A program made the translations under genes and the position numbers. The notes under the pieces were generated by a model. The model saw only the letters and a program-made list of their open reading frames with translations. It was not told where the DNA came from and did not search any database. Positions 2-14,849 of a DNA stretch of 16,463 nt are shown piece after piece; position 1 is the stretch's first letter, and the number at the start of each line of letters is the position of its first letter. This DNA is from Promethearchaeota archaeon (GTDB taxonomy: Archaea; Asgardarchaeota; Lokiarchaeia; Sigyniarchaeales; SOKP01). The stretch lies in assembly GCA_019058015.1 (NCBI GenBank), contig JAHLWH010000155.1:1-16463 (forward strand). The letters run 5' to 3'.

Positions 2-166
2 AAAATCTCGCAAAATAGAGTCAATGAATTAATTGAAACAGGTGCAAATATAATCGTTACGGCTTGCCCACTTTGTGAATTAGGATTAGAAAAAGGAATT
101 GACGAGAATAATAAAAAGAAAATTAAAATAATAGACTTAACTGAATTAATTGTAAAAGTTATATAA
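2..166 (+). CDS. C-terminal fragment of a CCG-domain (Fe-S)-binding oxidoreductase subunit (GlpC/HdrD/GlcF-like); truncated by window start
   Basis: Hand translation of frame 2 gives KISQNRVNELIETGANIIVTACPLCELGLEKG...IKIIDLTELIVKVI*. The GA-x-IIVTACPxC and 'DLTEL' end are typical of CCG domains. Not in the ORF track. Confidence 0.8.
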   Translation, partial: KISQNRVNELIETGANIIVTACPLCELGLEKGIDENNKKKIKIIDLTELIVKVI

Positions 167-189
167 ATTTCAAAAGAAAATATAAAAAT

Positions 190-1737
190 GTGATAAAAAT
201 GGATACATATATTTTATGCCTTGATATTGGCACAACTAATATAAAAGCTTTCCTTTTTGATAAAAATGGTGAAATTTTTGCTCAAGCTAAAAGAAAACCT
301 AAGTATATTATGGAAAAAAAAGGGCAAGTAGAGCAGGATCCAAAAGAAATCTGGGAATTAAGCAAACAAGTTATGGAAGAAGTTATAAAATCAAATAATT
401 TAAGTCCCGAGAATATAGCAGCAATTGGTATTACTACTCAGAGAGCTTCCTTTCTTTTCTGGGACAAAAATACTGGAAAAGTTTATTCTAATATTATCAC
501 TTGGCAAGATAAACGATGTGCATTATATACTGAGAAAAAAAATAAAGGTTTCTATTTTAGATTTTTACGAGGTATAACAAAATTTATCTATTTATTTTCG
601 CGGAGTATTAGGTTATTAACTTTTTCAACAATAAAATTCACTACTGACCATACATCTATGAGAACTGGATATTTTCTCGAAACTCATCCAGAAGTTAAAG
701 AATTAATTAGTAATCCCAAGACTAACATAATATGGGGTACAATAGATACTTGGATTTTATGGAATTTAACCGAAGGAAGAGTTCATGCTACAGATTATAC
801 AAATGCTCATACAGGCTTGTTAGATCCTTTTAAATTAGTATGGAATCCTTTATATTTAAAACCGCTTGGAATTCCAGAATATATATTACCAGAAATTAGA
901 GATACTAGAGGAGATTTCGGAAAAACAAAAATTTTTGGCGGCGAAATACCCATTACATGTTTAATTGGAGATCAAATGGCTAGTTTATTCGGACAGTGCT
1001 GTTTTAACGAAGGATCAATGAAAGTTACAAATGGTACGGGCTCATTTGTAGATCTTAATACAGGACAAAAATGTTGTGCTTCAAAAAGAAAATTATACCC
1101 ATTAATTGCTTGGCATATCAATGAACAAACTACTTATATGACGGAAGGAATGTCTCATAACGCAGGTAATATCATAGATTGGTTGCAGAATGAACTGGGA
1201 CTATATAATGATCCCTCCGAAACAGAAAAAATGGCATTAAGTGTGGATTCAACAGATGGTGTTTATTTTTTACCAACATTTACAACAGGCCTATCTTTTC
1301 CTTATTGGTCTGAAACCAAGGGTAATATTTTTGGTATAAATCTTGGTACAAAAAAAGAACACATAATTCGTGCTGTTTTAGAAGGATTTTGTTTTCGAAT
1401 AAAGGACATCGTTGAAGGAATTATTAAAGACACAAAAATTCAAATAGAAAAAATAAAAGCTGATGGGGGAGTATCTCAAAATAAATTTCTTCTTCAGTTT
1501 TTAAGCGATATATTAGAAATGGATGTTGAACATACAGGTAACCATGAAACTACTGCATTAGGTGCTACTTTTATGGCTGGATTAGCAGTTGGGTTTTGGA
1601 AGTCTGAAGATGAACTCCTACAGATTAGAAAAGTAGAAAAGACCTATAAACCTCAGATGACAGAAGAAGAACGTAGTAAGAAATATACATGTTGGAAGGA
1701 TATAGTGAAAAGATCTCTTAATTATGAAAATTTTTAA
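190..1737 (+). CDS. FGGY-family kinase, glycerol kinase 5 (GK5)-like
   Basis: Motifs LDIGTT, VEQDP, GITTQRAS, ITWQD, GTIDTW, ATDYTNA, GDQ, GTGSF, RAVLEG, ADGGVSQN, TALGA..AGLAVGFW. The amphipathic insert after WQD is GK5-like. ATG at 199 is an alternative start. Confidence 0.9.
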   Translation: MIKMDTYILCLDIGTTNIKAFLFDKNGEIFAQAKRKPKYIMEKKGQVEQDPKEIWELSKQVMEEVIKSNNLSPENIAAIGITTQRASFLFWDKNTGKVYSNIITWQDKRCALYTEKKNKGFYFRFLRGITKFIYLFSRSIRLLTFSTIKFTTDHTSMRTGYFLETHPEVKELISNPKTNIIWGTIDTWILWNLTEGRVHATDYTNAHTGLLDPFKLVWNPLYLKPLGIPEYILPEIRDTRGDFGKTKIFGGEIPITCLIGDQMASLFGQCCFNEGSMKVTNGTGSFVDLNTGQKCCASKRKLYPLIAWHINEQTTYMTEGMSHNAGNIIDWLQNELGLYNDPSETEKMALSVDSTDGVYFLPTFTTGLSFPYWSETKGNIFGINLGTKKEHIIRAVLEGFCFRIKDIVEGIIKDTKIQIEKIKADGGVSQNKFLLQFLSDILEMDVEHTGNHETTALGATFMAGLAVGFWKSEDELLQIRKVEKTYKPQMTEEERSKKYTCWKDIVKRSLNYENF

Positions 1738-1985: not shown

Positions 1986-2816
1986 ATGCCATTCTTTCGA
2001 AATAAGGATTCTCTAAGCATTTATTTTGAGGATATCAATGACGATCCTAAGAATTTCCCCATTATACTTTTACACGGCCAAGCTTCTTCTGTTATTTTCT
2101 TCAAACATCAAATCTCATTTCTAAAGAAAAAAAAATTCCGGTCAATTTGTATAGATCCCATAGGTTTAGGACGTAGTTTTAAGCCAATTAGCATAAATCT
2201 AAAGGATCATTTAAGGGAAACTTATATAAGAGACATTGAAGATTTATTAAAACATTTAAAAATTAATAACAAATTTGGTATTTTAGCCCATTCTTTAGTT
2301 GGTGGCATGATAGCTCAAATTTTCACTAAAAAACATCCTGATAAAGTTAAATTCTTAATTCTTTTAAACTCTGGAGATTTAATGATTGATAACGACATCC
2401 GAAGTTCATTTTGGAATGTTTTACCTTACCATGTCAGAATTAATTTCCTCCAGATTGTAGAAAATTCTCTTGATGACGTTTTAAACCGCACAATCCCATT
2501 TATAAAGCTAGCTTTTACGGAAGATCCTGTTTATAAAGATTACAGTGACCAAGAATTGGAGGAAATCATCGAAGAAGAAATATTCAATATGGTAAAAGAA
2601 GCAAAAAGCTTTGATCCTTCTGACATTAAATGTCCTACGTTGATTGTGAGTGGGATGTTAGATAATTACAGTCCTTTGACTTTTTCTGAAAGGTTAGCAG
2701 AAAAGATACCTAATTCTGAATTGATTGCAGTAGAATTTGCTGGGCATCTTGCTCCATCACAAATCTATGAAGAGATAAATGGTCATATTGGCAATTTTCT
2801 TAAAAAAATAGACTAA
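1986..2816 (+). CDS. Alpha/beta-fold hydrolase
   Basis: IILLHG oxyanion region, D-x-x-GLGRS, nucleophile elbow AHSLVGG, acid region IKCPTLIVSGMLD, and catalytic His in AGHL. Confidence 0.9.
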   Translation: MPFFRNKDSLSIYFEDINDDPKNFPIILLHGQASSVIFFKHQISFLKKKKFRSICIDPIGLGRSFKPISINLKDHLRETYIRDIEDLLKHLKINNKFGILAHSLVGGMIAQIFTKKHPDKVKFLILLNSGDLMIDNDIRSSFWNVLPYHVRINFLQIVENSLDDVLNRTIPFIKLAFTEDPVYKDYSDQELEEIIEEEIFNMVKEAKSFDPSDIKCPTLIVSGMLDNYSPLTFSERLAEKIPNSELIAVEFAGHLAPSQIYEEINGHIGNFLKKID

Positions 2817-2853
2817 TAATAAATTTTTTTAAATATTATTTTTTGTGTTTATT

Positions 2854-3249
2854 ATGAATTTAGAAAAAAGCAGTATTATTTTTAATGATAGTCTTCAAAC
2901 AATTTCTTTTTTAAAAAAAGAGGTCGAAAAATTTGTAAAAGAAAGAAAATGGAATAAATACCATACTCCAAAAGAATTAGCACAAGCAATATCCATTGAA
3001 AGTGCAGAATTATTAGAACTCTTTCTTTTTAAAAGCCCCTCTCTAGAAGAAATCTTGAATAATTCCGATTTTTTTTCAAAGATATCTGAAGAATTTGCTG
3101 ATATCTTCATTTATCTTCTTAGTTTTGCAAATGCAATTAATTTAGATATCTCTTCTGCTTTTCAAAAAAAAATGGAAAAAAATCGCAAAAAATATCCGTT
3201 AAGTGAGTTTTCTAATGGTACATATAAAAAAAAAGAGTCTTTTAAATAA
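2854..3249 (+). CDS. MazG-like nucleotide pyrophosphohydrolase (dCTP pyrophosphatase-like)
   Basis: FVKERKWNKYHTPKELAQAISIESAELLELF...EEFADIFIYLL...KKMEKNRKKYP matches the MazG-like/DCTPP1 pattern. ATG 2854 was chosen over GTG 2845. Confidence 0.9.
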   Translation: MNLEKSSIIFNDSLQTISFLKKEVEKFVKERKWNKYHTPKELAQAISIESAELLELFLFKSPSLEEILNNSDFFSKISEEFADIFIYLLSFANAINLDISSAFQKKMEKNRKKYPLSEFSNGTYKKKESFK

Positions 3250-3296
3250 TTACCACTTGATTAATAATCTACCTTTTAAGGCATAACAAATAAAAT

Positions 3297-4274
3297 ATGA
3301 ATGAAATGATCGATGACATCTTATATGAACAAATTAGATACACTCTAAAAGAAACTAATTTTCCAAAATTAGGGAAAAAGTATCAAGGAAAGGTGAGAGA
3401 TAATTATTCTAAAGAAGGTATTAGAATTATTATCGCTACTGATAGGTTGTCATCCTTTGACCGAGTTATCACTACTATTCCATTTAAGGGACAAATTTTA
3501 AATCAGCTCTCATCATTTTGGTTCGAAAAATCAAAAAATATAGCAAGAAATCATTTAATTTCTGTTCCGGATCCTAATGTTTCAGTTGTTCATGAATGCA
3601 AGACAGTTCCAATAGAAATGGTGATTCGTGGTTATATTACTGGAAGCTTGTGGCGTGCTTATCAAAAAGGAGAAAAATTCTCTGGGATTGAATTTCCAAA
3701 AGGATTAAGAAAGAATCAAAAATTTGATGAACCAATAATTACACCCTCAACTAAAGAAATACATGGTCATGATATATCTCTCTCTAAAAAGGAAATTTTA
3801 GATAAAAATTTGGTCTCAAAATCCATTTATGAACAGATGGAAGAAGATACCATTAAATTATTTGAATTTGGGCAAAATTTCAGTAAAAAAAATAATCTAA
3901 TATTAGTAGACACAAAGTATGAATTTGGATTAAAGGATGATGAGCTTTTAGTTATTGATGAGATTCATACACCTGATTCATCAAGATTTTGGATTGCTGA
4001 TACATATGAAGAATTATTTGGTAAATCTGAGGAACCTGAAATTCTTGATAAAGAATTTTTTAGAGGTTGGCTTATGGAAACATTTCCGGAGATATTTCCT
4101 AACATTAAGCCAGATGAAAAAATCCCTGAAATTCCAGACAGGATAAAAATAAAGTTAGCTAAACGTTATATTAACAATTTCGAAAGAATAATTGGGGTGC
4201 AATTTAATCCTGATACTAAAAAGGATCCTATTGAACGAATTAAAGATAATTTAAAAAATGCTGGTTATTTATAA
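3297..4274 (+). CDS. purC: Phosphoribosylaminoimidazolesuccinocarboxamide (SAICAR) synthase, long type
   Basis: GKVRDNY, TDRLSSFD, IPFKGQILN, PIEMVIRGYITGS, TPSTK, LVDTKYEFG, DEIHTPDSSRFW, LDKEFFR. Confidence 0.97.
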   Translation: MNEMIDDILYEQIRYTLKETNFPKLGKKYQGKVRDNYSKEGIRIIIATDRLSSFDRVITTIPFKGQILNQLSSFWFEKSKNIARNHLISVPDPNVSVVHECKTVPIEMVIRGYITGSLWRAYQKGEKFSGIEFPKGLRKNQKFDEPIITPSTKEIHGHDISLSKKEILDKNLVSKSIYEQMEEDTIKLFEFGQNFSKKNNLILVDTKYEFGLKDDELLVIDEIHTPDSSRFWIADTYEELFGKSEEPEILDKEFFRGWLMETFPEIFPNIKPDEKIPEIPDRIKIKLAKRYINNFERIIGVQFNPDTKKDPIERIKDNLKNAGYL

Positions 4275-4415
4275 TTTTTAGATGAAAAAACTATTGAATT
4301 GATAAGAATCTTGATTGGGATCATTCTGGAATTTCTTTTTTTTAATTAAATCTTTCAAATAATTAAAGATTTTTGTCGTTGTAAGATGCTCTTTAAAATC
4401 ATTTTATTTTTCCTT

Positions 4416-4444
4416 TAATAAAAACTAATAAAAATTAATAAAAA
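4416..4444. repeat. Three direct TAATAAAAA repeats with exact 10-bp period upstream of purS
   Basis: TAATAAAAA at 4416, 4426 and 4436, separated by single C and T bases. Confidence 0.7.
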
Positions 4445-4504
4445 GTATTGAGTATATTTTTAATTATCAGAATCTTGAAAATTTTCATAAAAAAATAGAA
4501 TATC

Positions 4505-4768
4505 ATGGAATATATTGTAGAAGTAGTATTAGAAAATAAGCCAGCTGCACGGGATCCAGTGGGTTCCACTATTCAGAAAGATCTGATGGCTAAGCAAGGA
4601 TATGATATGGTTTCAAATGTCAGAACAGGGCAATATTTAAGGATTTATGTAAAAGCCGAAAATGAGCAATTGGCAGAAAAACTCGTGGAAAAAATGTGTA
4701 ATGATCTCAGGATTTTTAATCCAGTGACCCAAAATCTAACAGTTCTAAGTGTTAAAAAGAAAAATTAA
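4505..4768 (+). CDS. purS: FGAM synthase subunit PurS
   Basis: 87 aa with K-x-x-x-x-DP-x-G-x-TI, VRTG and the C-terminal L-x-x-x-NPV; lies directly before purQ. Confidence 0.93.
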   Translation: MEYIVEVVLENKPAARDPVGSTIQKDLMAKQGYDMVSNVRTGQYLRIYVKAENEQLAEKLVEKMCNDLRIFNPVTQNLTVLSVKKKN

Positions 4769-4785
4769 AAAATATTTTTAAAAAA

Positions 4786-5496
4786 ATGAATATAAGAATT
4801 GCTGTTATCCAATTCCCAGGATCAAATTGCGATCGTGATGCAACTCATGTATTAAACAATGTTATTGGCATCCAAGCGGATTTGATTTGGCACACTAATT
4901 TTAAAGAAAGAAAATATGATGGTTGTATTCTTCCAGGTGGTTTTTCTTTCGGGGATTATTTACGTGGCGGAATTATAGCAGCTCATAGTCCTGCTGTAAA
5001 GGAAGCTGAAATAATGCTTAAAGATGGACGTCCTGTATTAGGGATTTGCAATGGTTTTCAAATTCTTACAGAAGCTGAATTTTTACCTGGTGCACTTTTA
5101 AGAAATAATACTTTAAAATTTGAATGTAAGTGGGTTCATATAAGGGTTGAAAATAATGAAACGGCATTTTCAAATCAAATGAAAAAAAAAGAGATAATGG
5201 ATATTCCCATTGCTCATAGTGAAGGCAGATACTTTTACGATAATTTAAAAGAATTATATGATAATGATCAAATCGTTTTTAAATATGTTTCAAAGGAGGG
5301 GCTTCTTAATGAAGAATCAAATCCAAATGGCTCATTCGATAACATTGCTGGAGTTTGCAATTTAGAACGAAACTGTGTTGGCTTAATGCCTCATCCTGAA
5401 AGAGCTTCAGAGGAAATCTTAAGCCCATTTAAGAATACTCATGGGATAAAATTATTTAATTCAATGGTCAATTTTATAAAATCTAAAGTGATTTAA
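4786..5496 (+). CDS. purQ: FGAM synthase glutaminase subunit PurQ
   Basis: FPGSNCD, LPGGFSFGDYLR, GICNGFQIL (catalytic Cys), PIAHSEGRY, NPNGS, GLMPHPER (His/Glu). Confidence 0.98.
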   Translation: MNIRIAVIQFPGSNCDRDATHVLNNVIGIQADLIWHTNFKERKYDGCILPGGFSFGDYLRGGIIAAHSPAVKEAEIMLKDGRPVLGICNGFQILTEAEFLPGALLRNNTLKFECKWVHIRVENNETAFSNQMKKKEIMDIPIAHSEGRYFYDNLKELYDNDQIVFKYVSKEGLLNEESNPNGSFDNIAGVCNLERNCVGLMPHPERASEEILSPFKNTHGIKLFNSMVNFIKSKVI

Positions 5497-5500
5497 TCAT

Positions 5501-7744
5501 ATGCCCATAGTTGAGAATGAAGGAGAAACGGTTGAGGTTGATTTAACAGAAGAAGAGATAAAAAAGATTAAATCACTTCTTGGAAGAGACCCATATATTA
5601 CAGAATGGGGTATGTTTGATGTAATGGGAAGTGAGCATTGTTCTTATAAATCTTCTCGCCCTAAATTAAAATTATTTGAGCCTGCAGAAGAGAATTATGA
5701 TTATGTTTTAGCGGGTCCCGGACAAGATGCTGGTGTTGTTGATATTGGTGACGATTATTGCATAGCATTTCGAATTGAATCTCATAATCATCCTTCTGCA
5801 ATAGAGCCATATCATGGTGCAGCTACGGGTATTGGGGGCATAATTAGAGATATTTTATGTATGGGTATGCGCCCAATAGCATTATTAGATCCACTTCGAT
5901 TTGGAAGATTAAAAAATAATTCTCATTCTCAATGGCTACTAAAATATGTTGTAAAGGGAATTGCAGATTATGGAAATTGTACTGGAATTCCTACAATTGG
6001 TGGAGAAGTTGAATTTGACCATAGTTTTGAAAATAATTGCTTAGTAAATGTAGCATGTATTGGTGTTGGTAAAGTTGAAGATTTGGCTCCAAGTAGAGCA
6101 TCAAAACCTGGAGATTATGCTGTATTAATGGGAAATTCAACTGGGAGAGATGGTATTCATGGAGTTACTTTTGCTTCCAGAACTTTAACAGAACAAAGTG
6201 AATCAGATCGACCAGCGGTTCAAATTGCAGATCCTTTTAGTAAAAAATTAATTATTGAGGCAACGGTTGAGGCGGTTAAGACTGGATATATAAGAGGATT
6301 AAAAGATTTGGGAGGTGGGGGACTTTCTTGTGCTTCAAGTGAGTTAACGGGAGATGGAGGTACTGGGATAGAATTTGATGTCAATAAAGTTTTTACTCGT
6401 GAACCAAACATGACTCCATTTGAGATAATGCTTTCAGAATCTCAAGAAAGAATGATGTTTATTGTAAAAGCTGAAGGCTTAGAGACTATTCTTGAAATAT
6501 TTAAAAAATATGAAACCCCTTATGCTGTATTAGGAAAAATTAATAATTCAAAACTATTAAGAGTTAAAAATGCGGATAAGATAGTAGTTGAACTAGATCC
6601 CACTCTATTATCAGATTTTCCTGTTATTATTAGAGAAGAGAAACGCCCAGAGTTTCTGAATGATTTAATTAATCAGAAAACTCCTGAAAGGACATTAAAA
6701 TTTGATGGGATAATATATCGGTTAATTGCATCCGAAAATATTTGTAGTAAAGAATGGATTTATAGACAATACGATCATGAAGTAGGCGTACGATCAGTAG
6801 TAAAATGTGGAGATGGAGATTCGGGCGTATTAAGAATAATTGGAACAAATAAATTTATATCTGGTAGCGCTGGGTGTAATTCTAAACATTGTTTTCTCGA
6901 TCCGTATGAAGGAGCAAAAGGTGCAGTAGTCGAAATTGGATGTAATATTGTTTCTAATGGCTTAAAACCTATTGCAATGGTTAATTGCTGTAATTTTGGC
7001 AATCCTGAGAAGCCAACATCTTTTTGGTATTTCTCTGAATGTGTTAAAGGTATGGCAGATAGCATAAAATTTTTTAATATCCCTTGTGTTGGGGGAAATG
7101 TTTCTTTTTATAATGAGGATGAAGTTCTTCAAAAAGTAATTAAACCAACACCTATTATCATGCTTTTAGGGTATATTGAAGGTCAAGAAAATATAATCAC
7201 ATTACCTTTTAAAAAAGCAGGAAATCCAATCTTTTTAATTGGAGAAACAAAAAATGAATTAGGGGGTTCGGAATATCATTCAGTTATTTACAATATTGAA
7301 GGAGGCACTCCACCAAAAGTCAATCTCGATTCCACTAAAAGAACTTGGGACTTTCTATTGGAAGTCAATAAAAAAGGCTATATTAGATCTGTTCATGATG
7401 TTAATAAGGGTGGATTTTTAATTACTATTTTAGAAATGAGTTTTCCAAATGAATTAGGAGCTGATCTAAATCTTTATGATTGTTTTGATAAAGATTTAAC
7501 TTCCGAACAATTTTTATTTAGTGAGTCGGTTGGAAGATTCATAATAGAAGTAGACGCTGATAAAATAAAAGAATTTATAGCATTAATTGAAAAGAATAAA
7601 CTCTATTTTAAAGAAATTGGAGTCATTATTGAAGAAATGCAAATTAAGATTAAAAGACTTGAAGAAAATTTTAATTTAGATATTATGATAGCAAAAAATT
7701 TATTCAATTCAACATTACCTAGAATCATGGAAGGAGATATGTGA
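5501..7744 (+). CDS. purL: FGAM synthase subunit PurL (small type)
   Basis: SEHCSYKSS, ESHNHPSAIEPYHGAATGIGGIIRD, TGRDGIHG, DLGGGGL, MLSESQERM, QYDHEVG, NFGNPE, GGNVSFYN, FSES. Confidence 0.98.
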   Translation: MPIVENEGETVEVDLTEEEIKKIKSLLGRDPYITEWGMFDVMGSEHCSYKSSRPKLKLFEPAEENYDYVLAGPGQDAGVVDIGDDYCIAFRIESHNHPSAIEPYHGAATGIGGIIRDILCMGMRPIALLDPLRFGRLKNNSHSQWLLKYVVKGIADYGNCTGIPTIGGEVEFDHSFENNCLVNVACIGVGKVEDLAPSRASKPGDYAVLMGNSTGRDGIHGVTFASRTLTEQSESDRPAVQIADPFSKKLIIEATVEAVKTGYIRGLKDLGGGGLSCASSELTGDGGTGIEFDVNKVFTREPNMTPFEIMLSESQERMMFIVKAEGLETILEIFKKYETPYAVLGKINNSKLLRVKNADKIVVELDPTLLSDFPVIIREEKRPEFLNDLINQKTPERTLKFDGIIYRLIASENICSKEWIYRQYDHEVGVRSVVKCGDGDSGVLRIIGTNKFISGSAGCNSKHCFLDPYEGAKGAVVEIGCNIVSNGLKPIAMVNCCNFGNPEKPTSFWYFSECVKGMADSIKFFNIPCVGGNVSFYNEDEVLQKVIKPTPIIMLLGYIEGQENIITLPFKKAGNPIFLIGETKNELGGSEYHSVIYNIEGGTPPKVNLDSTKRTWDFLLEVNKKGYIRSVHDVNKGGFLITILEMSFPNELGADLNLYDCFDKDLTSEQFLFSESVGRFIIEVDADKIKEFIALIEKNKLYFKEIGVIIEEMQIKIKRLEENFNLDIMIAKNLFNSTLPRIMEGDM

Positions 7745-9141
7745 TGGGTGGTCTTTTTGGAGTCTTTTCAAATAGTGATTGTATAGAGGATCTTTTTTAC
7801 GGGACTGATTATCATTCCCATTTAGGAACCAGAAGAGGCGGATTGACCGTAAAAAACTCTGGTGGATTTCAAAGATATATTAAGGATATCACAACAACTC
7901 AATTCAGGTCGAAATTCGAGGATGATATCAAGAAAATGCACGGAAATAAAGGTATCGGAGTGATCAGTGATTATGATGATCAACCCTTGATAATCGGCTC
8001 ACGTTTAGGCGTATTCGCCATTGCTACAGTTGGTAGAATTAACAATTTGGAAAAGCTAGCAGAAGAAGTATTAAAGAATGGATCACATTTCTCAGAAATG
8101 CATGGAGGGGAAATCAACCCCACGGAAATGGTCGCAACTATAATTAGCCAAGGTTCTACCTATGAAGAAGGAATTCAGAAAGTCCTCGATATGATTGATG
8201 GTTCTTGTACTATGCTTATATTAACGGATGAAGGTATTTATGCGGTACGAGATAAACTTGGTAGAACACCTCTCATTATAGGAGAAAAATTAGGATCTTA
8301 TGCCGTTGCAATGGAAACTTGTGCATTCCCAAATATCGAGTATAAAATAACAAAATACCTTGGACCAGGTGAAGTAATTTTCATAAGTGAGAAAGGTCTT
8401 GAACAGAAAATCGCACCTGGTGACCGGATGCAAATTTGTGCTTTCTTATGGGTATATTATGGATATCCAGCATCTAATTATGAGGGTATTAATGTTGAAG
8501 TTGTTCGTTACAAATGCGGTTCTTACTTGGCAAAGAAAGATGATGTGGAAATTGATCTCGTAGCGGGTATCCCGGATTCTGGAACACCGCATGGCTTGGG
8601 TTATGCTAGTGAAGCAAAAACTCCTTTCTCACGACCATTTGTAAAATACACCCCAACCTGGCCACGGAGTTTCATGCCTCAAGATCAATCCATTAGAGAA
8701 CTCGTTGCGAAGATGAAACTCATCCCGATTAAAGAACTCATTGATGGTAAGCGTCTACTTTTCTGTGAAGACTCAATCGTGAGAGGAACGCAACTTAGAG
8801 ATACAATTCAAAGGCTGTACAATTCTGGGGCTAAGGAAGTTCACATGCGACCAGCATGCCCTCCGCTTATTTATAGCTGCAAATTCCTTAATTTCTCCCG
8901 CTCTCGTTCTGAATTAGATTTAGCAGGACGCTGGGGCATAAGAGAACTAATTGGAAAGGATATCGACGATCCTGCCGAATATATCGACCCTGAGTCTGAT
9001 AATTATAAAGCCATGGTTGATGTTATACGTAAAAGGTTGCAGTTGACAACGTTAAAATACCAGAGACTTGAAGACCTAGTTAAAGCTATTGGTCTACCCA
9101 AGGAAAAACTGTGTACGTATTGCTGGGATGGCGTAGAATAG
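7744..9141 (+). CDS. purF: Atypical amidophosphoribosyltransferase (PurF-like) lacking the catalytic N-terminal Cys
   Basis: The PRTase domain is intact (GIPDSG, FCEDSIVRGTQ, EVHMRPACPP, LCTYCW) and RDKLGRTPL is present. The N-terminus is MGGLFG rather than CG(I/V)FG. ATG 7744 overlaps the purL stop (TGATG). Confidence 0.88.
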   Translation: MGGLFGVFSNSDCIEDLFYGTDYHSHLGTRRGGLTVKNSGGFQRYIKDITTTQFRSKFEDDIKKMHGNKGIGVISDYDDQPLIIGSRLGVFAIATVGRINNLEKLAEEVLKNGSHFSEMHGGEINPTEMVATIISQGSTYEEGIQKVLDMIDGSCTMLILTDEGIYAVRDKLGRTPLIIGEKLGSYAVAMETCAFPNIEYKITKYLGPGEVIFISEKGLEQKIAPGDRMQICAFLWVYYGYPASNYEGINVEVVRYKCGSYLAKKDDVEIDLVAGIPDSGTPHGLGYASEAKTPFSRPFVKYTPTWPRSFMPQDQSIRELVAKMKLIPIKELIDGKRLLFCEDSIVRGTQLRDTIQRLYNSGAKEVHMRPACPPLIYSCKFLNFSRSRSELDLAGRWGIRELIGKDIDDPAEYIDPESDNYKAMVDVIRKRLQLTTLKYQRLEDLVKAIGLPKEKLCTYCWDGVE

Positions 9142-9143
9142 TT

Positions 9144-9331
9144 GTTAAAGAATTCCAAGCATTAACTGAAAATTTTGATATTCCATCAAAAAAATTGGAG
9201 TTATTATTAATTAAAAAGAAATTTAAGTTAAGATTCTTAATGAAATTTTTAATTTGGATATTATCAACACAAAAAATTTATACTATTCAACATTTCCTAG
9301 AATAATGGAAGAAGCAAATTCGAAAATATGA
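9144..9331 (+). pseudogene. purL: Degenerate relic of a purL 3' end (about 62 codons, one frameshift, two TAA stops)
   Basis: With one A restored in the A7 run at 9188-9194 it reads VKEFQALTENFDIPSKKIGVIIN*KEI*VKILNEIFNLDIINTKNLYYSTFPRIMEEANSKI*. This aligns without gaps to the PurL C-terminus (7565-7744), with 31 of 56 residues identical by hand count. Confidence 0.88.
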
Positions 9332-10914
9332 GTAGTTTAAATTATTATTCAAATTGTTTTAAAAATTGCAACTCTTGTTCAAAAGATAATTTTTTTAATA
9401 AAGATTTTAATACAAAACTTCTTTATTCCTCTCCCTTAATGATTAATAAACCTCGAGATCATTGCGGAGTTTTCGGTATTTCAACACCAGATATGGAATA
9501 TAACATTGCTCATGAGTTATATTTAGGGCTAATGGGTGTTCAACATAGAGGTCAAGAAGCAGTTGGCATCTCTATTGTAAATGGACATAATAAAATTCAT
9601 TCTTATAAAAGTCGTGGATTGGCTGCGCAATCTTTAAATCAGGAACTTTTAAAACAATATTGGGGAAATGCTGGAATCGGTCATGTGAGATATGGCACAA
9701 CTGAAACTTCGAATATTCTTTTTGCTCAGCCGTACCAATTTTGTTCTAACCAGATTGAATATTCTTTTGGTTTCAATGGCACTATTGCAAACTATATGAA
9801 ATTAAAGAAGCAATTAGGTGAAAAAGGAATAATAATCAATAGTAATAGTGATACTGAAGTAGTTGCAAATTTATTTGCTTCTTTAAGTATTGGTACTAAA
9901 GATTGGATTGAAATCTTTAGAATTGCTGCAAAATTTCTCGATGGATCTTATTCTCTCACTTTATTAACGCCAGAGGGCGATATTTATGCTGTAAGAGATC
10001 CGTATGGATTTAAACCTTTATGTTATGGAGTAGTTGATGATGATAATCGAATTAAAAATGTTGTAGCATCAGAAAGTTGCGCAATAGATGCTGTTAATGG
10101 CAAATTAATTGATGATGTAAAACCAGGACAAATTGTTCATTTTGAACCTACAGGTAATATTAATAAGGAAACCTTTGCGAATTCAAAAAGAACAGCATTA
10201 TGCCAATTTGAATTTGTTTATTTCGCACGACCTGATTCGATAGTTGATGGAGTTCCTGTAAATAAAGCAAGAGAAAATTTAGGCATAAATTTAGCAAAAG
10301 AACACCCTTGTGATTTATATAATACTATTATTGTTCCAGTTCCTGATTCTGGGAGAAGTGCTGCATCAGGATATGCTAAAGAATCTGGATTTCCTTATGA
10401 AGAAGGTTTAATGAAGAATAGATATGTTTGGCGAACTTTTATTATGCCTGGTCAAAAGAATCGTGAGAACGCAGTTTCTGAGAAATTAAACCCCATTAGA
10501 TCAATCATAAGTGGAAAAAACGTAGTCTTAGTTGATGATTCCATTGTAAGAGGGACAACAATGGCTCAAATAGTATCACTTCTTAGAAAAGGCGGAGCAA
10601 AATCAGTTCATGTGCGAATCTCCGCACCGCCAATAAAAGCAGCATGTTATATGGGGATTGATTTTCCTTCTTCCTCTGAGCTATTGGCTGGACGGATGGA
10701 ACTTATAGATAAAGATAATTGGATAGATCTTGTTCGACAAAAAATTGGAGCCGACTCATTAAATTATCAAAGTATTGATGGTCTGGTAAGAGCAATAGGA
10801 TTAAGGAAGAATCAACTTTGTTTAGCATGTTTAAATGAAGAATATGTAATTAAGAGTGCTTCAGAATTGCAAAATTTAGAGAAATACTTTGTGAGATCGC
10901 GTGATCGGATATAA
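9328..10914 (+). CDS. purF: Amidophosphoribosyltransferase, canonical Fe-S/propeptide type
   Basis: KPRDH/CGVFG cleavage site, QHRGQE, GHVRYGT, FNG, SDTE, RDPYGFKPL, CQFEFVYFARPDS, VPDSG, VDDSIVRGTT, CYMGID, LCLAC. ATG 9439 is an alternative start. Confidence 0.97.
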   Translation: MSSLNYYSNCFKNCNSCSKDNFFNKDFNTKLLYSSPLMINKPRDHCGVFGISTPDMEYNIAHELYLGLMGVQHRGQEAVGISIVNGHNKIHSYKSRGLAAQSLNQELLKQYWGNAGIGHVRYGTTETSNILFAQPYQFCSNQIEYSFGFNGTIANYMKLKKQLGEKGIIINSNSDTEVVANLFASLSIGTKDWIEIFRIAAKFLDGSYSLTLLTPEGDIYAVRDPYGFKPLCYGVVDDDNRIKNVVASESCAIDAVNGKLIDDVKPGQIVHFEPTGNINKETFANSKRTALCQFEFVYFARPDSIVDGVPVNKARENLGINLAKEHPCDLYNTIIVPVPDSGRSAASGYAKESGFPYEEGLMKNRYVWRTFIMPGQKNRENAVSEKLNPIRSIISGKNVVLVDDSIVRGTTMAQIVSLLRKGGAKSVHVRISAPPIKAACYMGIDFPSSSELLAGRMELIDKDNWIDLVRQKIGADSLNYQSIDGLVRAIGLRKNQLCLACLNEEYVIKSASELQNLEKYFVRSRDRI

Positions 10915-11020
10915 AGATAATTCATTATATTAATTTAAAAATAATTGGAAAAAAAATATAAATTATCCATCTATTTAATAATTAGGACTAATAAAAATTA
11001 AGTCTGGGTTGAGTTTGGTT

Positions 11021-11215
11021 ATGAGTTTCATAATGGTAAGAGTATGTCATAGATGTAAGGAATATGTAGTTATTAACCCATCTAACCCATCTAATCAACA
11101 AATAATTAAGAAATTTGAATTAAAACATACAAGACATGCAATTGTATCGCTCTCAATTTCGGAAGTAAAAGGCTATTATGAAAATGTCGGAAAAAAATTA
11201 TTAGAAGAACAATAA
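11021..11215 (+). CDS. Small hypothetical protein, putative C2H2-type zinc binder
   Basis: CHRC-x23-HTRH; followed by a T-rich tract. Start is uncertain (TTG 11009, ATG 11021 or ATG 11033). Confidence 0.7.
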   Translation: MSFIMVRVCHRCKEYVVINPSNPSNQQIIKKFELKHTRHAIVSLSISEVKGYYENVGKKLLEEQ

Positions 11216-11216
11216 C

Positions 11217-11246
11217 TCTTTTTCTTTTAAGTTTTTTTTGATTTTT
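11217..11246 (+). terminator. Putative oligo-T terminator after the small zinc-binding ORF
   Basis: TCTTTTTCTTTTAAGTTTTTTTTGATTTTT immediately after the stop codon. Confidence 0.45.
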
Positions 11247-11260
11247 AATAAACTCAATTC

Positions 11261-11280
11261 GATATTATCTAGATAATATC
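11261..11280. promoter_or_regulatory. Perfect 20-bp palindrome, candidate operator upstream of the RHH gene
   Basis: GATATTATCTAGATAATATC is its own reverse complement. An extra half-site GATATTAT lies at 11294-11301 and a TATA-like TTTATATT at 11307-11314. Confidence 0.6.
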
Positions 11281-11343
11281 CTATTTTTAATTTGATATTA
11301 TAGGAGTTTATATTAAAAAAATATGTAGGTGTAGTTAAAAAAA

Positions 11344-11505
11344 GTGAAGCTAATAACGGTTCATGTTCCAGAAATTTATATACGTGGAATTGAAGAATTG
11401 GTAAACTCTAACGTTTATCCAAATAGATCAGAAGTTATCCGTGTAGCAATTAGAGATTTACTGAAAAGTGAATTAGGATCCCTAGTTGCTATTTCCTCAC
11501 AATAA
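11344..11505 (+). CDS. Ribbon-helix-helix (CopG/Arc/MetJ) transcriptional regulator, CdrS-like, 53 aa
   Basis: Hand translation from GTG gives MKLITVHVPEIYIRGIEELVNSNVYPNRSEVIRVAIRDLLKSELGSLVAISSQ*. It has an alternating beta strand plus the YPNRSEVIRxAIRDLL motif, and AGGTG lies upstream. Below the ORF-track length cutoff. Confidence 0.9.
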   Translation: MKLITVHVPEIYIRGIEELVNSNVYPNRSEVIRVAIRDLLKSELGSLVAISSQ

Positions 11506-11612
11506 TCTCTTATTTTTTTTATTGTTTTAGGCGTTGCTAAATAAATTTAACTTAATAATAAAAATATGCAAATAGATTTCTAAATATTAAATATATCTTT
11601 ATCTTGTTATAA

Positions 11613-12194
11613 ATGTTATTTAGAGTGAAAAAATTTTCAGAAAAGCTTCTACTTCCTTTAGGTACAAAGTTATCAAAGATTTCAGCAAATTACATTAGTA
11701 TTTGTGGTTTTATTTCTGCAATTTTAGTATTTATAGGATTCTCTTTTAAATGGATTTTATTAGATATTATATTTCTCTGTTTTATCTTTTTAATTGATCA
11801 ACTAGACGGTGTAATCGCTCGACTCCAAGGAGCTACAAAATTCGGAGGATTTTTAGATTCAACATTAGATCGATATTCAGATATATTGATCTTTGTTGGA
11901 ATTATACTTGGAGAATATACTGAGATAATAATTGGATTTATTGTTATTTTCGGTGCATTCTTAACCTCGTATACTAGAGCGAAAATAGAAGCTCTGGGTA
12001 TTGTAAGTTTAAGTGGTGTGGGGTTATTGGAACGGACAGACAGGATTCCAATACTTATTATTGGAACAATAATACAAATCTGGATCCCATTTGCTATTTG
12101 GTGGACAATGGTAATATTAGCAATTGGAACTCACCTAACTGCAATTCAACGATTTATTTTTGCATATAAAAATTTATCTCATAAATCAGAGTAG
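11613..12194 (+). CDS. CDP-alcohol phosphatidyltransferase (archaetidylinositol-phosphate synthase/PgsA-like)
   Basis: Signature DQLDGVIAR...GGFLDSTLDRYSD, plus SYTRAKIEALG, VGLLERTDR, TAIQRF; several hydrophobic helices. Confidence 0.92.
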   Translation: MLFRVKKFSEKLLLPLGTKLSKISANYISICGFISAILVFIGFSFKWILLDIIFLCFIFLIDQLDGVIARLQGATKFGGFLDSTLDRYSDILIFVGIILGEYTEIIIGFIVIFGAFLTSYTRAKIEALGIVSLSGVGLLERTDRIPILIIGTIIQIWIPFAIWWTMVILAIGTHLTAIQRFIFAYKNLSHKSE

Positions 12195-12216
12195 ATTTTT
12201 AAATGTATCTCCTTTA

Positions 12217-13044
12217 TTACATTTTATCTTTTAAAGTATCTATTACCTTTAAGATTTTTTCTCGAAACCAATGTTCGTCTGGTTCCTTGTGTTGAGTACT
12301 AATAAAATTTATTACGGAAGAAAACAATGGAAAGTAAAAATTTGTTATGGAATACTTAATTCTATCGAGTTCAAAAGGGATTTTTCCGTTTTCATCATAA
12401 TAATTCTTTGAAAAACTACAGTTCAATGTGTTTATATTATTTCTCCATTGATGACCTAAAATTCTATAAATATTAACATCATTTTTAATCTTCCGTAAGG
12501 GTTGTACCAATTCAATCTGATGCTTTTTTAATAAGGATTTGTACAAATCTAAAATCTCAGAAATTTGATTCAACTTTTCAACGGAATTATGAGACTCCCT
12601 TTCACCTGTTATGATTTTTTGAATATTATAAAAATTTGCTATAGGAATTCTCATCATATGAAGAAATAAATGACATGCTGGACATGGGGTAAAATATCCG
12701 AAATATTTTTGAACTATAGCAATATTTTGTAAAATTAATTGTTCAAATAAATTTCCGACATCGAGATAAATAAAGGGCATGAAATCTAATTTTTTTGATA
12801 AATACAACTTTACTAGATAATCGAAATTTTCCCATGGTTCATTTTTATTACCATATAAAACCCGATGATACAAACTAATTCCTAGCAATGACTTTACTTC
12901 GTTCTCCTTAAATAATTGAATCACTGCAGCAATACTGTCTTTTCCTGCAATTTCGGCAATAAATCGATTTGAATTAACATCAAGTAGAATTGGAGGATTT
13001 TTAAAGAAATCTACATATTTTATTATTTGTATTTTAGTGGGTAT
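12217..13044 (-). CDS. Uncharacterised PP-loop (adenine nucleotide alpha-hydrolase-like) protein with a CxxCH motif; probable non-canonical start
   Basis: The frame stays open upstream of the listed GTG (12924) as far as TAG at 13066-13068, and encodes FIAEIAGKDSIAA (PP-loop-like). Downstream it has TPCPACHL, IITGERESH, QPLR and CSF. ATA at 13044 lies 7 nt after GGTG. Confidence 0.7.
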   Translation of the reverse strand: MPTKIQIIKYVDFFKNPPILLDVNSNRFIAEIAGKDSIAAVIQLFKENEVKSLLGISLYHRVLYGNKNEPWENFDYLVKLYLSKKLDFMPFIYLDVGNLFEQLILQNIAIVQKYFGYFTPCPACHLFLHMMRIPIANFYNIQKIITGERESHNSVEKLNQISEILDLYKSLLKKHQIELVQPLRKIKNDVNIYRILGHQWRNNINTLNCSFSKNYYDENGKIPFELDRIKYSITNFYFPLFSSVINFISTQHKEPDEHWFREKILKVIDTLKDKM

Positions 13045-13220: not shown

Positions 13221-14219
13221 ATGGCATTTTTGAGTGTAAATAAATTAGCATTAGAGATTGTAAAAAAAGTTATTTCAAAAAAGGAAATATTGAATATTTC
13301 AGTTGAAACTTTGTCAAATGGCGCCACAGTATTAGATTTTAGTAAAGGATCTTATGGGGCTGGTAAATTCTTATCTGAAATTTGTCTAGGAGGTCTTGGA
13401 ATTGTCAAATTTACAAATTATATGCTGGATAAACATTATATTCCTGCTGTTACTGTCAATACTTCTGAGCCAATAATTTCTTGCATGGCATCTCAATTCG
13501 CAGGGTGGAATGTAAAACTAAAAAAAGAAGTGGAAATTGATGGTGAAATCAAAAAGAAGAAGGTTTTTGAATCTTTAGGTTCTGGTCCCGCTAGAGCGCT
13601 GTCACGAGTTGAAAAAGATTTATATGAAGAATTGGGGTATAAAGATGATGCCGATTGTGCAATTTTAGTATTTGAAACAGCAAAATTACCCAATGAGGAA
13701 GTAATGGAATTAATAGCTAAAAAATGCGGAGTAAGCCCCAGTAATGCTTATGCATGTTGCGCACCCACAGCATGTTTGTGTGGCTCAATTCAAATAGCAT
13801 CAAGAATTGTAGAAACGGGTATTCATAAACTGCATGAGTTACATTTTCCGTTAGATGTGATTAAATATGGTTTTGGAACGACCACAATTGCCCCAATTGC
13901 AAAAGATGATTTAAAAGCAATGGGAGTTACTAACGACTCATTAATTGCAACTGGAAGTGTATATTATACAATTGAAGCTGACAAAGAAAAACAAGAAGAA
14001 TTGTGGGAACTTGTTAAAAAAGCACCCTCAAACACATCTTCCAGCTATGGAAAACCTTTCATTGAAACCTTTAAAGAAGTCGACTATAAATTCTATGATA
14101 TTGACCCAGGACTTTTCGCTCCAGCATTATTTACTGTAAATAATTCAAAAACCGGGAAGATAATATCGGCTGGAGCTATAAATAACGACCTTCTTAAATT
14201 ATCTTATGGTTTATCTTAA
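13221..14219 (+). CDS. mch: Methenyltetrahydromethanopterin cyclohydrolase
   Basis: LSVNKLA, LSNGATVLD, EICLGGLG, CMASQFAGW, LGSGPARAL, APTA..GSIQIASRIVETGIHK, MGVTND, PS..S..YGKPF, FYDIDPGLFAPA. Confidence 0.96.
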   Translation: MAFLSVNKLALEIVKKVISKKEILNISVETLSNGATVLDFSKGSYGAGKFLSEICLGGLGIVKFTNYMLDKHYIPAVTVNTSEPIISCMASQFAGWNVKLKKEVEIDGEIKKKKVFESLGSGPARALSRVEKDLYEELGYKDDADCAILVFETAKLPNEEVMELIAKKCGVSPSNAYACCAPTACLCGSIQIASRIVETGIHKLHELHFPLDVIKYGFGTTTIAPIAKDDLKAMGVTNDSLIATGSVYYTIEADKEKQEELWELVKKAPSNTSSSYGKPFIETFKEVDYKFYDIDPGLFAPALFTVNNSKTGKIISAGAINNDLLKLSYGLS

Positions 14220-14252: not shown

Positions 14253-14849
14253 TTACCCCATAAAATTCTGCTTTGCTCCAATTAGCGTGGTAGTTTCTTC
14301 GATAATTGTTGATAACTCCTTTTCACTAGGTTAATTAGTAATAATTTTATCTAATTCATTGAGTTTAGAAAATGATATTGCAGCCAATAAATCCCAGCCT
14401 CCATAAATCGGAGAAGCATATGTAATTAACCAATCCTCTCCATACTCGGTTGATCTTAAATCTTTTATTTTATTTACAATTTCTTCTTCTAATCCAATTT
14501 TTTTTAACCTAACAAGAACATAAGCACGATAATATAGATTTTTGGATTTTATTTTTGTGGCGTCAAAGTTGTTCTTTGTGCTGGTGAAGGTTGTAGATTC
14601 TTCAATTATCTTAGATAGTTCCTCATCAATTTTAAAAAAAGTTTTCAACTTATCTAATTCTTCATGCTTCGAAAAACATATTTCCAATAAAATATCCCAA
14701 GATCCAAATATGGGAGTACAATAAAAAACAAACCAGTCTTCATCTTCATCATCTTCTCTTGATTTTAAATTTCTAACTTTCTCCACTACTTTCCATTCTG
14801 AACCTATCTCCCGTAGTCTGATAAGAATGTATCCTTTGTAATATCGCAT
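14253..14849 (-). pseudogene. Tandem two-domain Lrp/AsnC ligand-binding (RAM)-like protein without HTH, interrupted by an in-frame TAA at 14331-14333
   Basis: Two internal repeats: YYKGYILIRL...PIFGSWDILLE...ELDK...IIEESTT and YYRAYVLVRL...PIYGGWDLLAA...ELDK. Repeat-2 homology continues in frame past the stop (PSEKELSTIIEETTTLIGAKQNFMG*). The RAM-fold call rests on the A-Y-V-L-V...G-x-W-D...T-x-T pattern. Confidence 0.7.

Follow-up and report, generated by a model that had tools for sequence, protein, structure and literature searches.

A decaying copy of the purL 3' end lies between two purF-type genes in a purine biosynthetic operon of a Lokiarchaeial genome

The DNA analysed here, referred to as the window, is a whole contig of 16,463 nt (16.5 kb) from a Promethearchaeota archaeon of the class Lokiarchaeia, the genome of which (G000) amounts to 3.84 Mb. 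As listed in Table 1, the window carries a cluster of purine biosynthetic genes in which an intact purL is followed by two genes of the purF type, separated by a spacer of 188 nt. The first of the two, a PurF-like gene without the Cys nucleophile, is called aPurF, and the spacer is called the relic. The stop codon TGA of purL (7742-7744) overlaps the ATG of aPurF by one base.

Table 1. Features of the window and the evidence bearing on each
Feature	Position	Strand	Evidence or remark
HdrD-like gene (CCG domain, Pfam), 3' end	2-163	+	tblastn with the 431-aa protein of G003:C456; residues 378-431 match at 61%
HdrD-like 3' end and short spacer before the FGGY kinase	2-189	+	slot occupied by aPurF, on the opposite strand, in G003
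FGGY kinase	190-1737	+	
alpha/beta hydrolase	1986-2816	+	
MazG-like	2845-3249	+	
purC	3297-4274	+	
purS	4505-4768	+	
purQ	4786-5496	+	
purL (FGAM synthase subunit II), intact, 747 aa	5501-7744	+	NCBIfam NF002290, 878.7 bits (cut-off 648), profile positions 1-723 of 723
Intact purL tail (T), codons ~689-744, upstream member of the duplicated pair	7565-7733	+	BLAST, 7568-7736 against 9147-9314, 76% identity
aPurF, PurF-like paralogue, 465 aa, start MGGLFGV	7744-9141	+	TIGR01134, 190.9 bits, below the cut-off of 350
Relic (R), 5'-truncated second copy of the purL tail	9144-9331	+	BLAST, alignments, shuffles, decay in relatives
Last ~55 nt of the relic, adjoining and overlapping the purF start	9277-9331	+	alignment of eight spacers
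Canonical purF (type B), 528 aa	9328-10914	+	TIGR01134, 422.9 bits (cut-off 350)
sORF68, 68 aa	11009-11215	+	homologue directly after purL in G003
RHH, ribbon-helix-helix protein, 53 aa	11344-11505	+	Pfam RHH_1, E 3.2e-8; second gene of the block downstream of purL in G003
CDP-alcohol phosphatidyltransferase	11613-12194	+	
mch	13221-14219	+	
gluRS	14940 onward	+	

No tRNA was found in the window. A protein of 172 aa without family assignment is encoded on the minus strand (14331-14849); its residues 3-95 gave a second, overlapping tblastn match of 48% in every relative, and it appears to contain an internal repeat. An ORF of 64 aa with a GTG start (9111-9305) runs from the end of aPurF on into the relic, the first frame of which it follows; as an artefact of the relic, it is best not annotated.

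The spacer sequence was compared by BLAST with the whole genome, and the segment 7568-7736 of purL matched bases 4-171 of the query with 76% identity (E 8.7e-27), the sole other match in the genome being a 46-base AT-rich stretch (E 9.4e-5). The local alignment of the relic with the purL tail scored 136, and none of 500 mononucleotide (not dinucleotide) shuffles, which scored 24.5 +/- 3.8, reached this value. These results bear out the initial annotation, made from the sequence alone, in taking the spacer for a copy of the purL 3' end. Its description of a gapless alignment with a 1-nt deletion was right about the lost nucleotide, but the relic has 9 nt extra near its end compared with the intact tail. 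Its count of 31 identical amino acids out of 56 was essentially right, our recount with X placed at the breaks giving 30/56, and its divergence of ~45% applies to the protein level (~46%) and not to the nucleotide level (24-27%).

Base by base, the segment 7568-7733 of purL is duplicated at 9147-9310, and the remaining 9311-9331 corresponds to the former purL end and stop, which are gone from the intact copy. The 5' edge of the relic corresponds to purL codon ~689. The relic has no start codon and lies directly behind aPurF, 2-6 nt past its stop (9139-9141), as had been reported. The relic keeps the purL frame through ..EFQALTENFDIPSKK; one base is missing at an A7 run near 9190-9197, and after the change of frame it reads on through ..FNLDI..KNLYYSTFPRIME. 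In the homologous frame there are two in-frame TAA stops, at 9212-9214 and 9224-9226, and the terminal TGA (9329-9331) overlaps the ATG (9328) of the canonical purF. The frameshift, the two stops and the overlap, all of them pointed out in the initial annotation, were thereby confirmed. We concluded that the spacer holds a partial second copy of purL without function, comprising the last ~56 codons and the region of the original stop.

The order purL-aPurF-spacer-purF was also found on seven other contigs, from the genomes G001, G002 and G004 and from the metagenome contigs L096, L097, L098 and L100. Among the eight contigs, the relic is of full length (188 nt) on four, and these four sequences are 98-99% identical; it has a 69-nt internal deletion on three (G001, L097 and L098); and on L100 the last ~55 nt remain, preceded by unrelated sequence. 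Since the relic recurs on seven contigs in three states of decay, it is real and is decaying, in agreement with the earlier description of a stranded, decaying purL 3' end. A second purL tail was found in no other of the 263 loci screened (1.86 Mb). An assembly chimera at 9141-9144, which had been considered in the initial annotation, is effectively refuted by the seven contigs, which come from other assemblies and carry the same gene order and a homologous spacer. Similarity beyond chance, truncation with lesions, varied decay and a gene order recurring on other contigs were thus all found. As a feature the relic is of an ordinary kind, namely a pseudogene made of a gene fragment that a rearrangement left behind, and it is unusually well documented by its eight contigs and three states of decay.

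The 3' ~55 nt are the sole part of the relic kept in all eight spacers compared, the rest being deleted or replaced in four of them. The whole spacer or these last ~55 nt might accordingly be kept for a present function, as a purF promoter, a ribosome-binding region or a leader, which would be compatible with any model of their origin; an A-run followed by TTTATA, and GGAAG a few bases ahead of the ATG, would fit such a role. Motifs of this kind are, however, expected by chance in a genome so rich in AT, no Rfam match was found across 9000-11700 at E<=1, and the G000-G001 identity of the spacer (85-89%) is no better than that of the adjoining purF 5' end (83-87%). We therefore regard a present function as doubtful. 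The identity of the spacer tracks that of the adjoining DNA, being 99% to G004 and G002 and lower to G001, and from these comparisons no special constraint on the spacer is apparent, except that the last ~55 nt were never lost.

Over 3000-12600, the identity of G000 to G004, G002 and G001 is a mosaic, with blocks of 99-100% beside blocks of 83-90%; the block 8650-9400 is 99% identical to G004 and 85-97% identical to G001, falling along the block. Such mosaic identity among close relatives suggests recombination between these species. Within the clade (G004 against G000 and G001), variation was seen at the left end of the cluster too: in the region 98000-112500 of contig C10 of G004, the hydrolase gene has neither the FGGY kinase gene nor the HdrD-like gene upstream of it, in contrast to G000, G001 and G003, the last being a sister species outside the clade.

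A PurF tree of the 63 complete sequences of the order, from which fragments were excluded, resolved three clades, namely aPurF (20 sequences), type B (33 sequences, including the purF of the window), which has an N-terminal extension, and type C, which starts with MCG and lies directly 3' of purL in 9 genomes of other genera. The purF of the window satisfies the PurF equivalog model TIGR01134 (Table 1), with a Cys nucleophile and HCGVFG at residues 45-50. The extension of type-B PurF comprises ~45 residues before the catalytic Cys (9328-9465 in the window); within the clade it is rich in Cys, with CxxxCxxC here and CxxCxxC in G001, and its first ~16 codons are not alignable between the clade and G003.

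The only Pfam match of aPurF is GATase_7, and the protein fails TIGR01134 and is without the N-terminal Cys nucleophile. When it was aligned to the B. subtilis PurF (1GPH) from residue 2, Gly was found at the place of the nucleophile Cys1, and the N-termini of all 10 orthologues read conform to (M/L)GG(L/I)FGV. The stretches HRGQ, NGN and SDTE of the B. subtilis protein, which we take to be glutaminase-site positions, are replaced by HLGT, VGR and NPTE, respectively; DSIVRGT and the C-terminal CxxC are kept. Judged from these residues, aPurF may be an ammonia-dependent or regulatory PurF. It shares 64-69% identity with genes from contigs that bear the titles Lentisphaerae, Verrucomicrobiota, Planctomycetota, Thermodesulfobacteriota, Aminicenantes and others, and its homologues are annotated at source plainly as amidophosphoribosyltransferase. 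A limited literature search returned no relevant title on Cys-less PurF paralogues, and we do not claim that the family is undescribed. As far as the matches and fetched loci show, the 25 genomes of the family (G000-G024) comprise 13 with aPurF only, 8 with type C only, 1 with both (G017) and 3 with neither (G007, G010 and G019); aPurF and type C are thus nearly complementary across the family. Neighbouring, convergent copies of aPurF and type-B purF occur in five genomes, which belong to three other genera.

The initial annotation had proposed that a segment consisting of a purL tail and the atypical purF, coming from a related donor, entered purL by homologous recombination on the left and by illegitimate joining on the right, leaving a chimeric PurL and a stranded old tail. 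The composition of aPurF would fit a foreign origin, its GC being 0.40 against ~0.31 and its GC3 0.32 against 0.17-0.27 in the neighbouring genes, but the high GC is common to the copy in G003 (0.40) and, more weakly, to those of other genera. When two aPurF fragments of G003 were added to the PurF tree, along with seven homologues whose contigs are titled as other taxa (six bacterial phyla and Lokiarchaeum ossiferum), the aPurF of the clade was nested within the family clade (99%) and had the G003 fragments as its closest neighbours. In G003, aPurF is found on the opposite strand at a distance of 7.5 kb upstream from the purL end, flanked by the HdrD-like gene on one side and the FGGY kinase gene on the other, and this slot is empty in the window and in G001, where 24-27 nt separate the two genes. 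By its place in the tree and its presence elsewhere in the sister species, aPurF is native to the lineage and not foreign. A donor carrying the whole proposed segment also finds little place among the sampled loci: purL was found within 4 kb at 0 of 77 aPurF loci outside the clade, and in G008 purL and aPurF are convergent.

As for the chimeric PurL, the distances from G000 to P0122 and P0123, two functional PurLs retrieved by a search of a collection of 5.8 billion proteins, tracked the distance between P0122 and P0123 in 40-aa windows along the whole protein. The tail is the fastest-evolving part of PurL in every lineage; the intact tail is at 0.47-0.54 from the PurLs of the G003 side, these being at 0.41 from each other, and its distance to eight outgroups is 0.65 in G000, 0.60 in P0122 and 0.67 in P0123. 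There is thus no breakpoint or excess divergence in a scan that covers 59 tail sites, from which a short tract could escape, and we saw no sign in these sequences that PurL is a chimera. The sites at which the relic alone differs and those at which the intact tail alone differs lie intermingled and do not form a mosaic.

The relation between the two tails was then considered within the genus. In a PurL tree with the tail removed, P0122 and P0123 fall with G003, opposite the G000 clade within the genus (94%; 100% for the genus clade). A nucleotide tree was also made from 32 tails, from which the truncated relics of G001, L097, L098 and L100 were excluded. There the tail of G003, the intact tails of the G000 clade and the four full relics come together in a single clade (support 100/99), and a genus-specific deletion of two codons is common to all of them. 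The source of the copy thus lies inside the genus, and the placement of both tails in the genus clade is a further point against a donor. The relic and the tails of G003, P0122 and P0123 have a C-terminal extension of 5-7 residues after ..IME and share the motifs (Y/F)YS and P(S/L)(K/N)(K/N), the relic having the states PSKK and YYS as in G003, P0122, P0123 and the outgroups. The intact tail of the G000 clade has LYFKE and FNS at those places and ends in ..MEGDM, its end being 9-12 nt shorter and running into the aPurF start. Judged from these motifs and ends, it is the relic that preserves the ancestral type of purL end. The initial annotation had predicted that relatives without the insert would have a tail closer to the relic abutting purF. 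In the first respect this held, the tails of G003 (25/59 residues identical to the relic), P0122 (33/59) and P0123 (32/58) being at least as close as the genome's own intact tail (27-30/56) and having the same extension; a purL that abuts type-B purF was not seen among the sampled genomes and contigs.

The trees disagree on the next level of grouping. The nucleotide tree made the relic and the intact tail sisters (91/72), and the protein tail tree paired the relic with the G003 side (91/73). AU tests with both trees gave p values of 0.43-0.50 for all alternatives, so that none of the three groupings was rejected, and the polarised shared-derived sites among the relic, the intact tail and the G003 side numbered 2, 4 and 6, which is the noise level. 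A local duplication, which the initial annotation had set against its own reading, is accordingly favoured by the nucleotide tree and not by the protein tree, and the AU tests reject neither outcome. Over ~170 sites, 18 unique substitutions were counted in the relic, 18 in the intact tail and 30 in G003; their distribution over the three codon positions (6/6/6, 8/4/6 and 14/7/9, respectively) does not discriminate. Among the five genes with enough sites, fourfold-site identity between G000 and G003 was 0.58 for aPurF and 0.31-0.41 for the other four; being near saturation, it leaves too little for a neutral clock.

The ancestral-type features of the relic, its grouping in the protein tree and the layout of the e14 prophage at icd/icdC, which is the same (PMC13626634), speak for a donor. 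Against the native position of aPurF and the continuous PurL, we consider the donor history distinctly unlikely, and the initial annotation is in its overall interpretation partly supported. The pairing of the relic with G003, P0122 and P0123 in the protein tree, and the near equidistance of the relic, the intact tail and the G003-side tails, would also suit a duplication older than the crown of the genus, in which case the G003 side would have lost aPurF by recombination between the tails and kept a tail of the relic type, and both purF genes would have moved later. This history would call for three or more additional rearrangements on the G003 side; in the nucleotide tree the relic and the intact tail are preferred as sisters; and no vestige of a relic was found upstream of the G003 purF (score 23 against 23.1 +/- 3.6 in shuffles). 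We hold it to be highly improbable.

The wider layout differs between the clade and its sister species. In G003, for which the layout was assembled from four contigs (C496, C456, C21 and C89) of a genome 69% complete, purL is followed after ~95 nt by sORF68, RHH and an amidohydrolase gene. In G000 the sORF68-RHH block follows purF, with 67% identity to G003 over 438 nt (11054-11478 against G003:C21 622-1051; E 6e-35) and an alignment score of 174 against 25.4 +/- 2.7 in shuffles, and in G004 and G001 a further ~15 kb is passed before the amidohydrolase gene is reached. Compared with G003, both purF-type genes of the clade thus sit between purL and sORF68. sORF68, which has no Pfam match, and RHH are a conserved pair that travels together and marks the old region downstream of purL. 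The DNA downstream of purL in G003 showed no similarity to the 5' coding part of the window's purF.

The PurF of G003 is the sister of the clade's PurF with 100% support, and purF, like aPurF, is native to the lineage. In G003 the type-B purF adjoins pyrG and glnA, as it does in G027 and G029 of another family, and G000 has pyrG-glnA without purF; from this linkage, type-B purF may have reached the purL locus in this clade only. In other families of the order (loci L064-L070, L072 and L075; f2 and f4), purL and purQ form one open frame of ~980-1020 aa with the PurL part first, which is followed by a type-B purF in 6 of 9 loci examined; no separate purL tail precedes purF there.

The linkage of purF to pyrG-glnA, which implies that its position here may be derived, and the long stem (0.35) of the genus type-B PurF count for an opposite order of events. 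The order purL-aPurF would then have come first, and a fragment with a purL 3' end and a type-B purF, from a second copy or from a congener with coupled purL and purF, would have been inserted behind it, the relic being a hitch-hiker that never functioned at this site. This order needs an outside source for the last 21 nt of the relic, which are missing from the intact tail, and with the G003 PurF as sister of the clade's PurF the donor would have to be a congener. Moreover, none of the genomes and contigs sampled has purL followed directly by a type-B purF, and a purL tail was found in the flanks of 0 of 73 other metagenomic purF loci. We consider the opposite order very unlikely.

The junctions give a closer view of the insert. 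The C-terminal end CTYCWDGVE of aPurF and its stop are conserved in the orthologues, as is its start. Of the 8 nt past the aPurF stop, 7 agree with the 3' flank of aPurF in G003; they end in TAAA, which is also found at the start of the duplicated purL segment. At the left junction, the intact tail matches the purL of G003 through ATGGAAGGA, after which 12 nt lead to the aPurF ATG with a new stop (TGATG). With conserved aPurF ends and such flanks, the insert amounts to the aPurF ORF and, on each side of it, no more than ~10 nt. The insertion point lies ~21 nt before the old purL stop, and ~170 nt of purL are repeated on both sides.

The history that we favour, with a probability of roughly 0.55, is one in which purL and purF, formerly adjacent and coupled, were separated when the native aPurF entered 21 nt ahead of the purL stop and ~170 nt were duplicated along with it. 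In the ancestor of the clade (G000, G001, G002, G004 and the four metagenome contigs), purL would have had a slightly longer C-terminus and a TGA overlapping the ATG of the type-B purF, an overlap by which the two genes would have been translationally coupled. The ancestral adjacency of purL and purF proposed in the initial annotation is retained here, since the overlap of the relic's stop with the purF ATG argues for a former direct coupling. The lineage's own aPurF would then have been placed ~21 nt ahead of the purL stop, and the same event would have duplicated the preceding ~170 nt of purL, either by a replicative template switch or by a repair event with microhomology at the right junction. 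The upstream copy would have stayed in frame and gained a shorter end (..MEGDM) and a stop overlapping the aPurF start, so that PurL stayed whole. The downstream copy, without a start codon, would have drifted to the frameshift and two stops seen here, to the 69-nt deletion in one sub-lineage and to the remaining ~55 nt in another, and the old copy of aPurF would have been lost. Because the last 21 nt of the relic are missing from the intact tail, the simplest order is that purF joined the purL stop first and that aPurF and the duplication came later.

Several observations count against this favoured history. Neither of its two intermediates was seen in the sampled genomes or contigs, the pre-insertion state having been found in none of 79 metagenome loci, 135 family genomes and the 263 loci screened for a second purL tail. 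The position of purF beside pyrG-glnA in G003, G027 and G029 adds a step; unique changes are as numerous in the intact tail as in the relic; and the nucleotide and protein trees disagree as described above.

In one specific form of the favoured history, a template switch would have written an inverted copy of a gene 7.5 kb upstream into the last codons of purL, with the 170-nt duplication, so giving a native purL-aPurF-purF operon in which the last ~55 nt of the dead copy have since become a signal for purF expression. We regard this full sequence of events as unlikely; if true, it would make the locus a record of operon assembly and exaptation that can be dated and read at the level of the sequence, and this in the archaeal lineage closest to eukaryotes. 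On the favoured history, a biosynthetic operon in a Lokiarchaeial (Promethearchaeota) genome would have been rebuilt from the genome's own genes, the disrupted gene still being whole, and an oddly composed gene beside a gene fragment need not imply horizontal transfer. For annotation, the 188-nt spacer should be taken as neither a regulatory RNA nor a small gene. The enzymological question posed by the three PurF types of the family, one of them without the Cys nucleophile, may outweigh the scar in interest.

Both genes flanking the relic belong to the superfamily of PurF, glutamine PRPP amidotransferase (TIGR01134; B. subtilis 1GPH/1AO0), and the downstream one passes the cut-off. With regard to the arrangement as a whole, two known systems may be compared. 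The e14 prophage at icd/icdC was reportedly described by Hill et al. in 1989. In E. coli K-12, an intact 3' end of icd lies at one edge of the insert and a displaced C-terminal pseudogene repeat, icdC, at the other (PMC13626634). As in that case, the 3' end of the target gene stands here as a direct repeat at both edges (7568-7736 and 9147-9314 flank aPurF); unlike that case, the insert is one metabolic gene with at most ~10 nt of flank and without integrase or phage genes, and it is native to the lineage. With no integrase and a native insert, the locus does not belong to the e14/icd class of site-specific integration. Replicative template switching of the FoSTeS/MMBIR type produces junctions that combine duplication with insertion. 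Compared with cases of that type, the mechanism here would be read from the layout, the source copy is known in the sister species only, and the two copies, now 24-27% divergent, go back to old events; like them, the locus joins an inverted copy of a nearby sequence to a flanking direct duplication, with microhomology (TAAA) at the junction.
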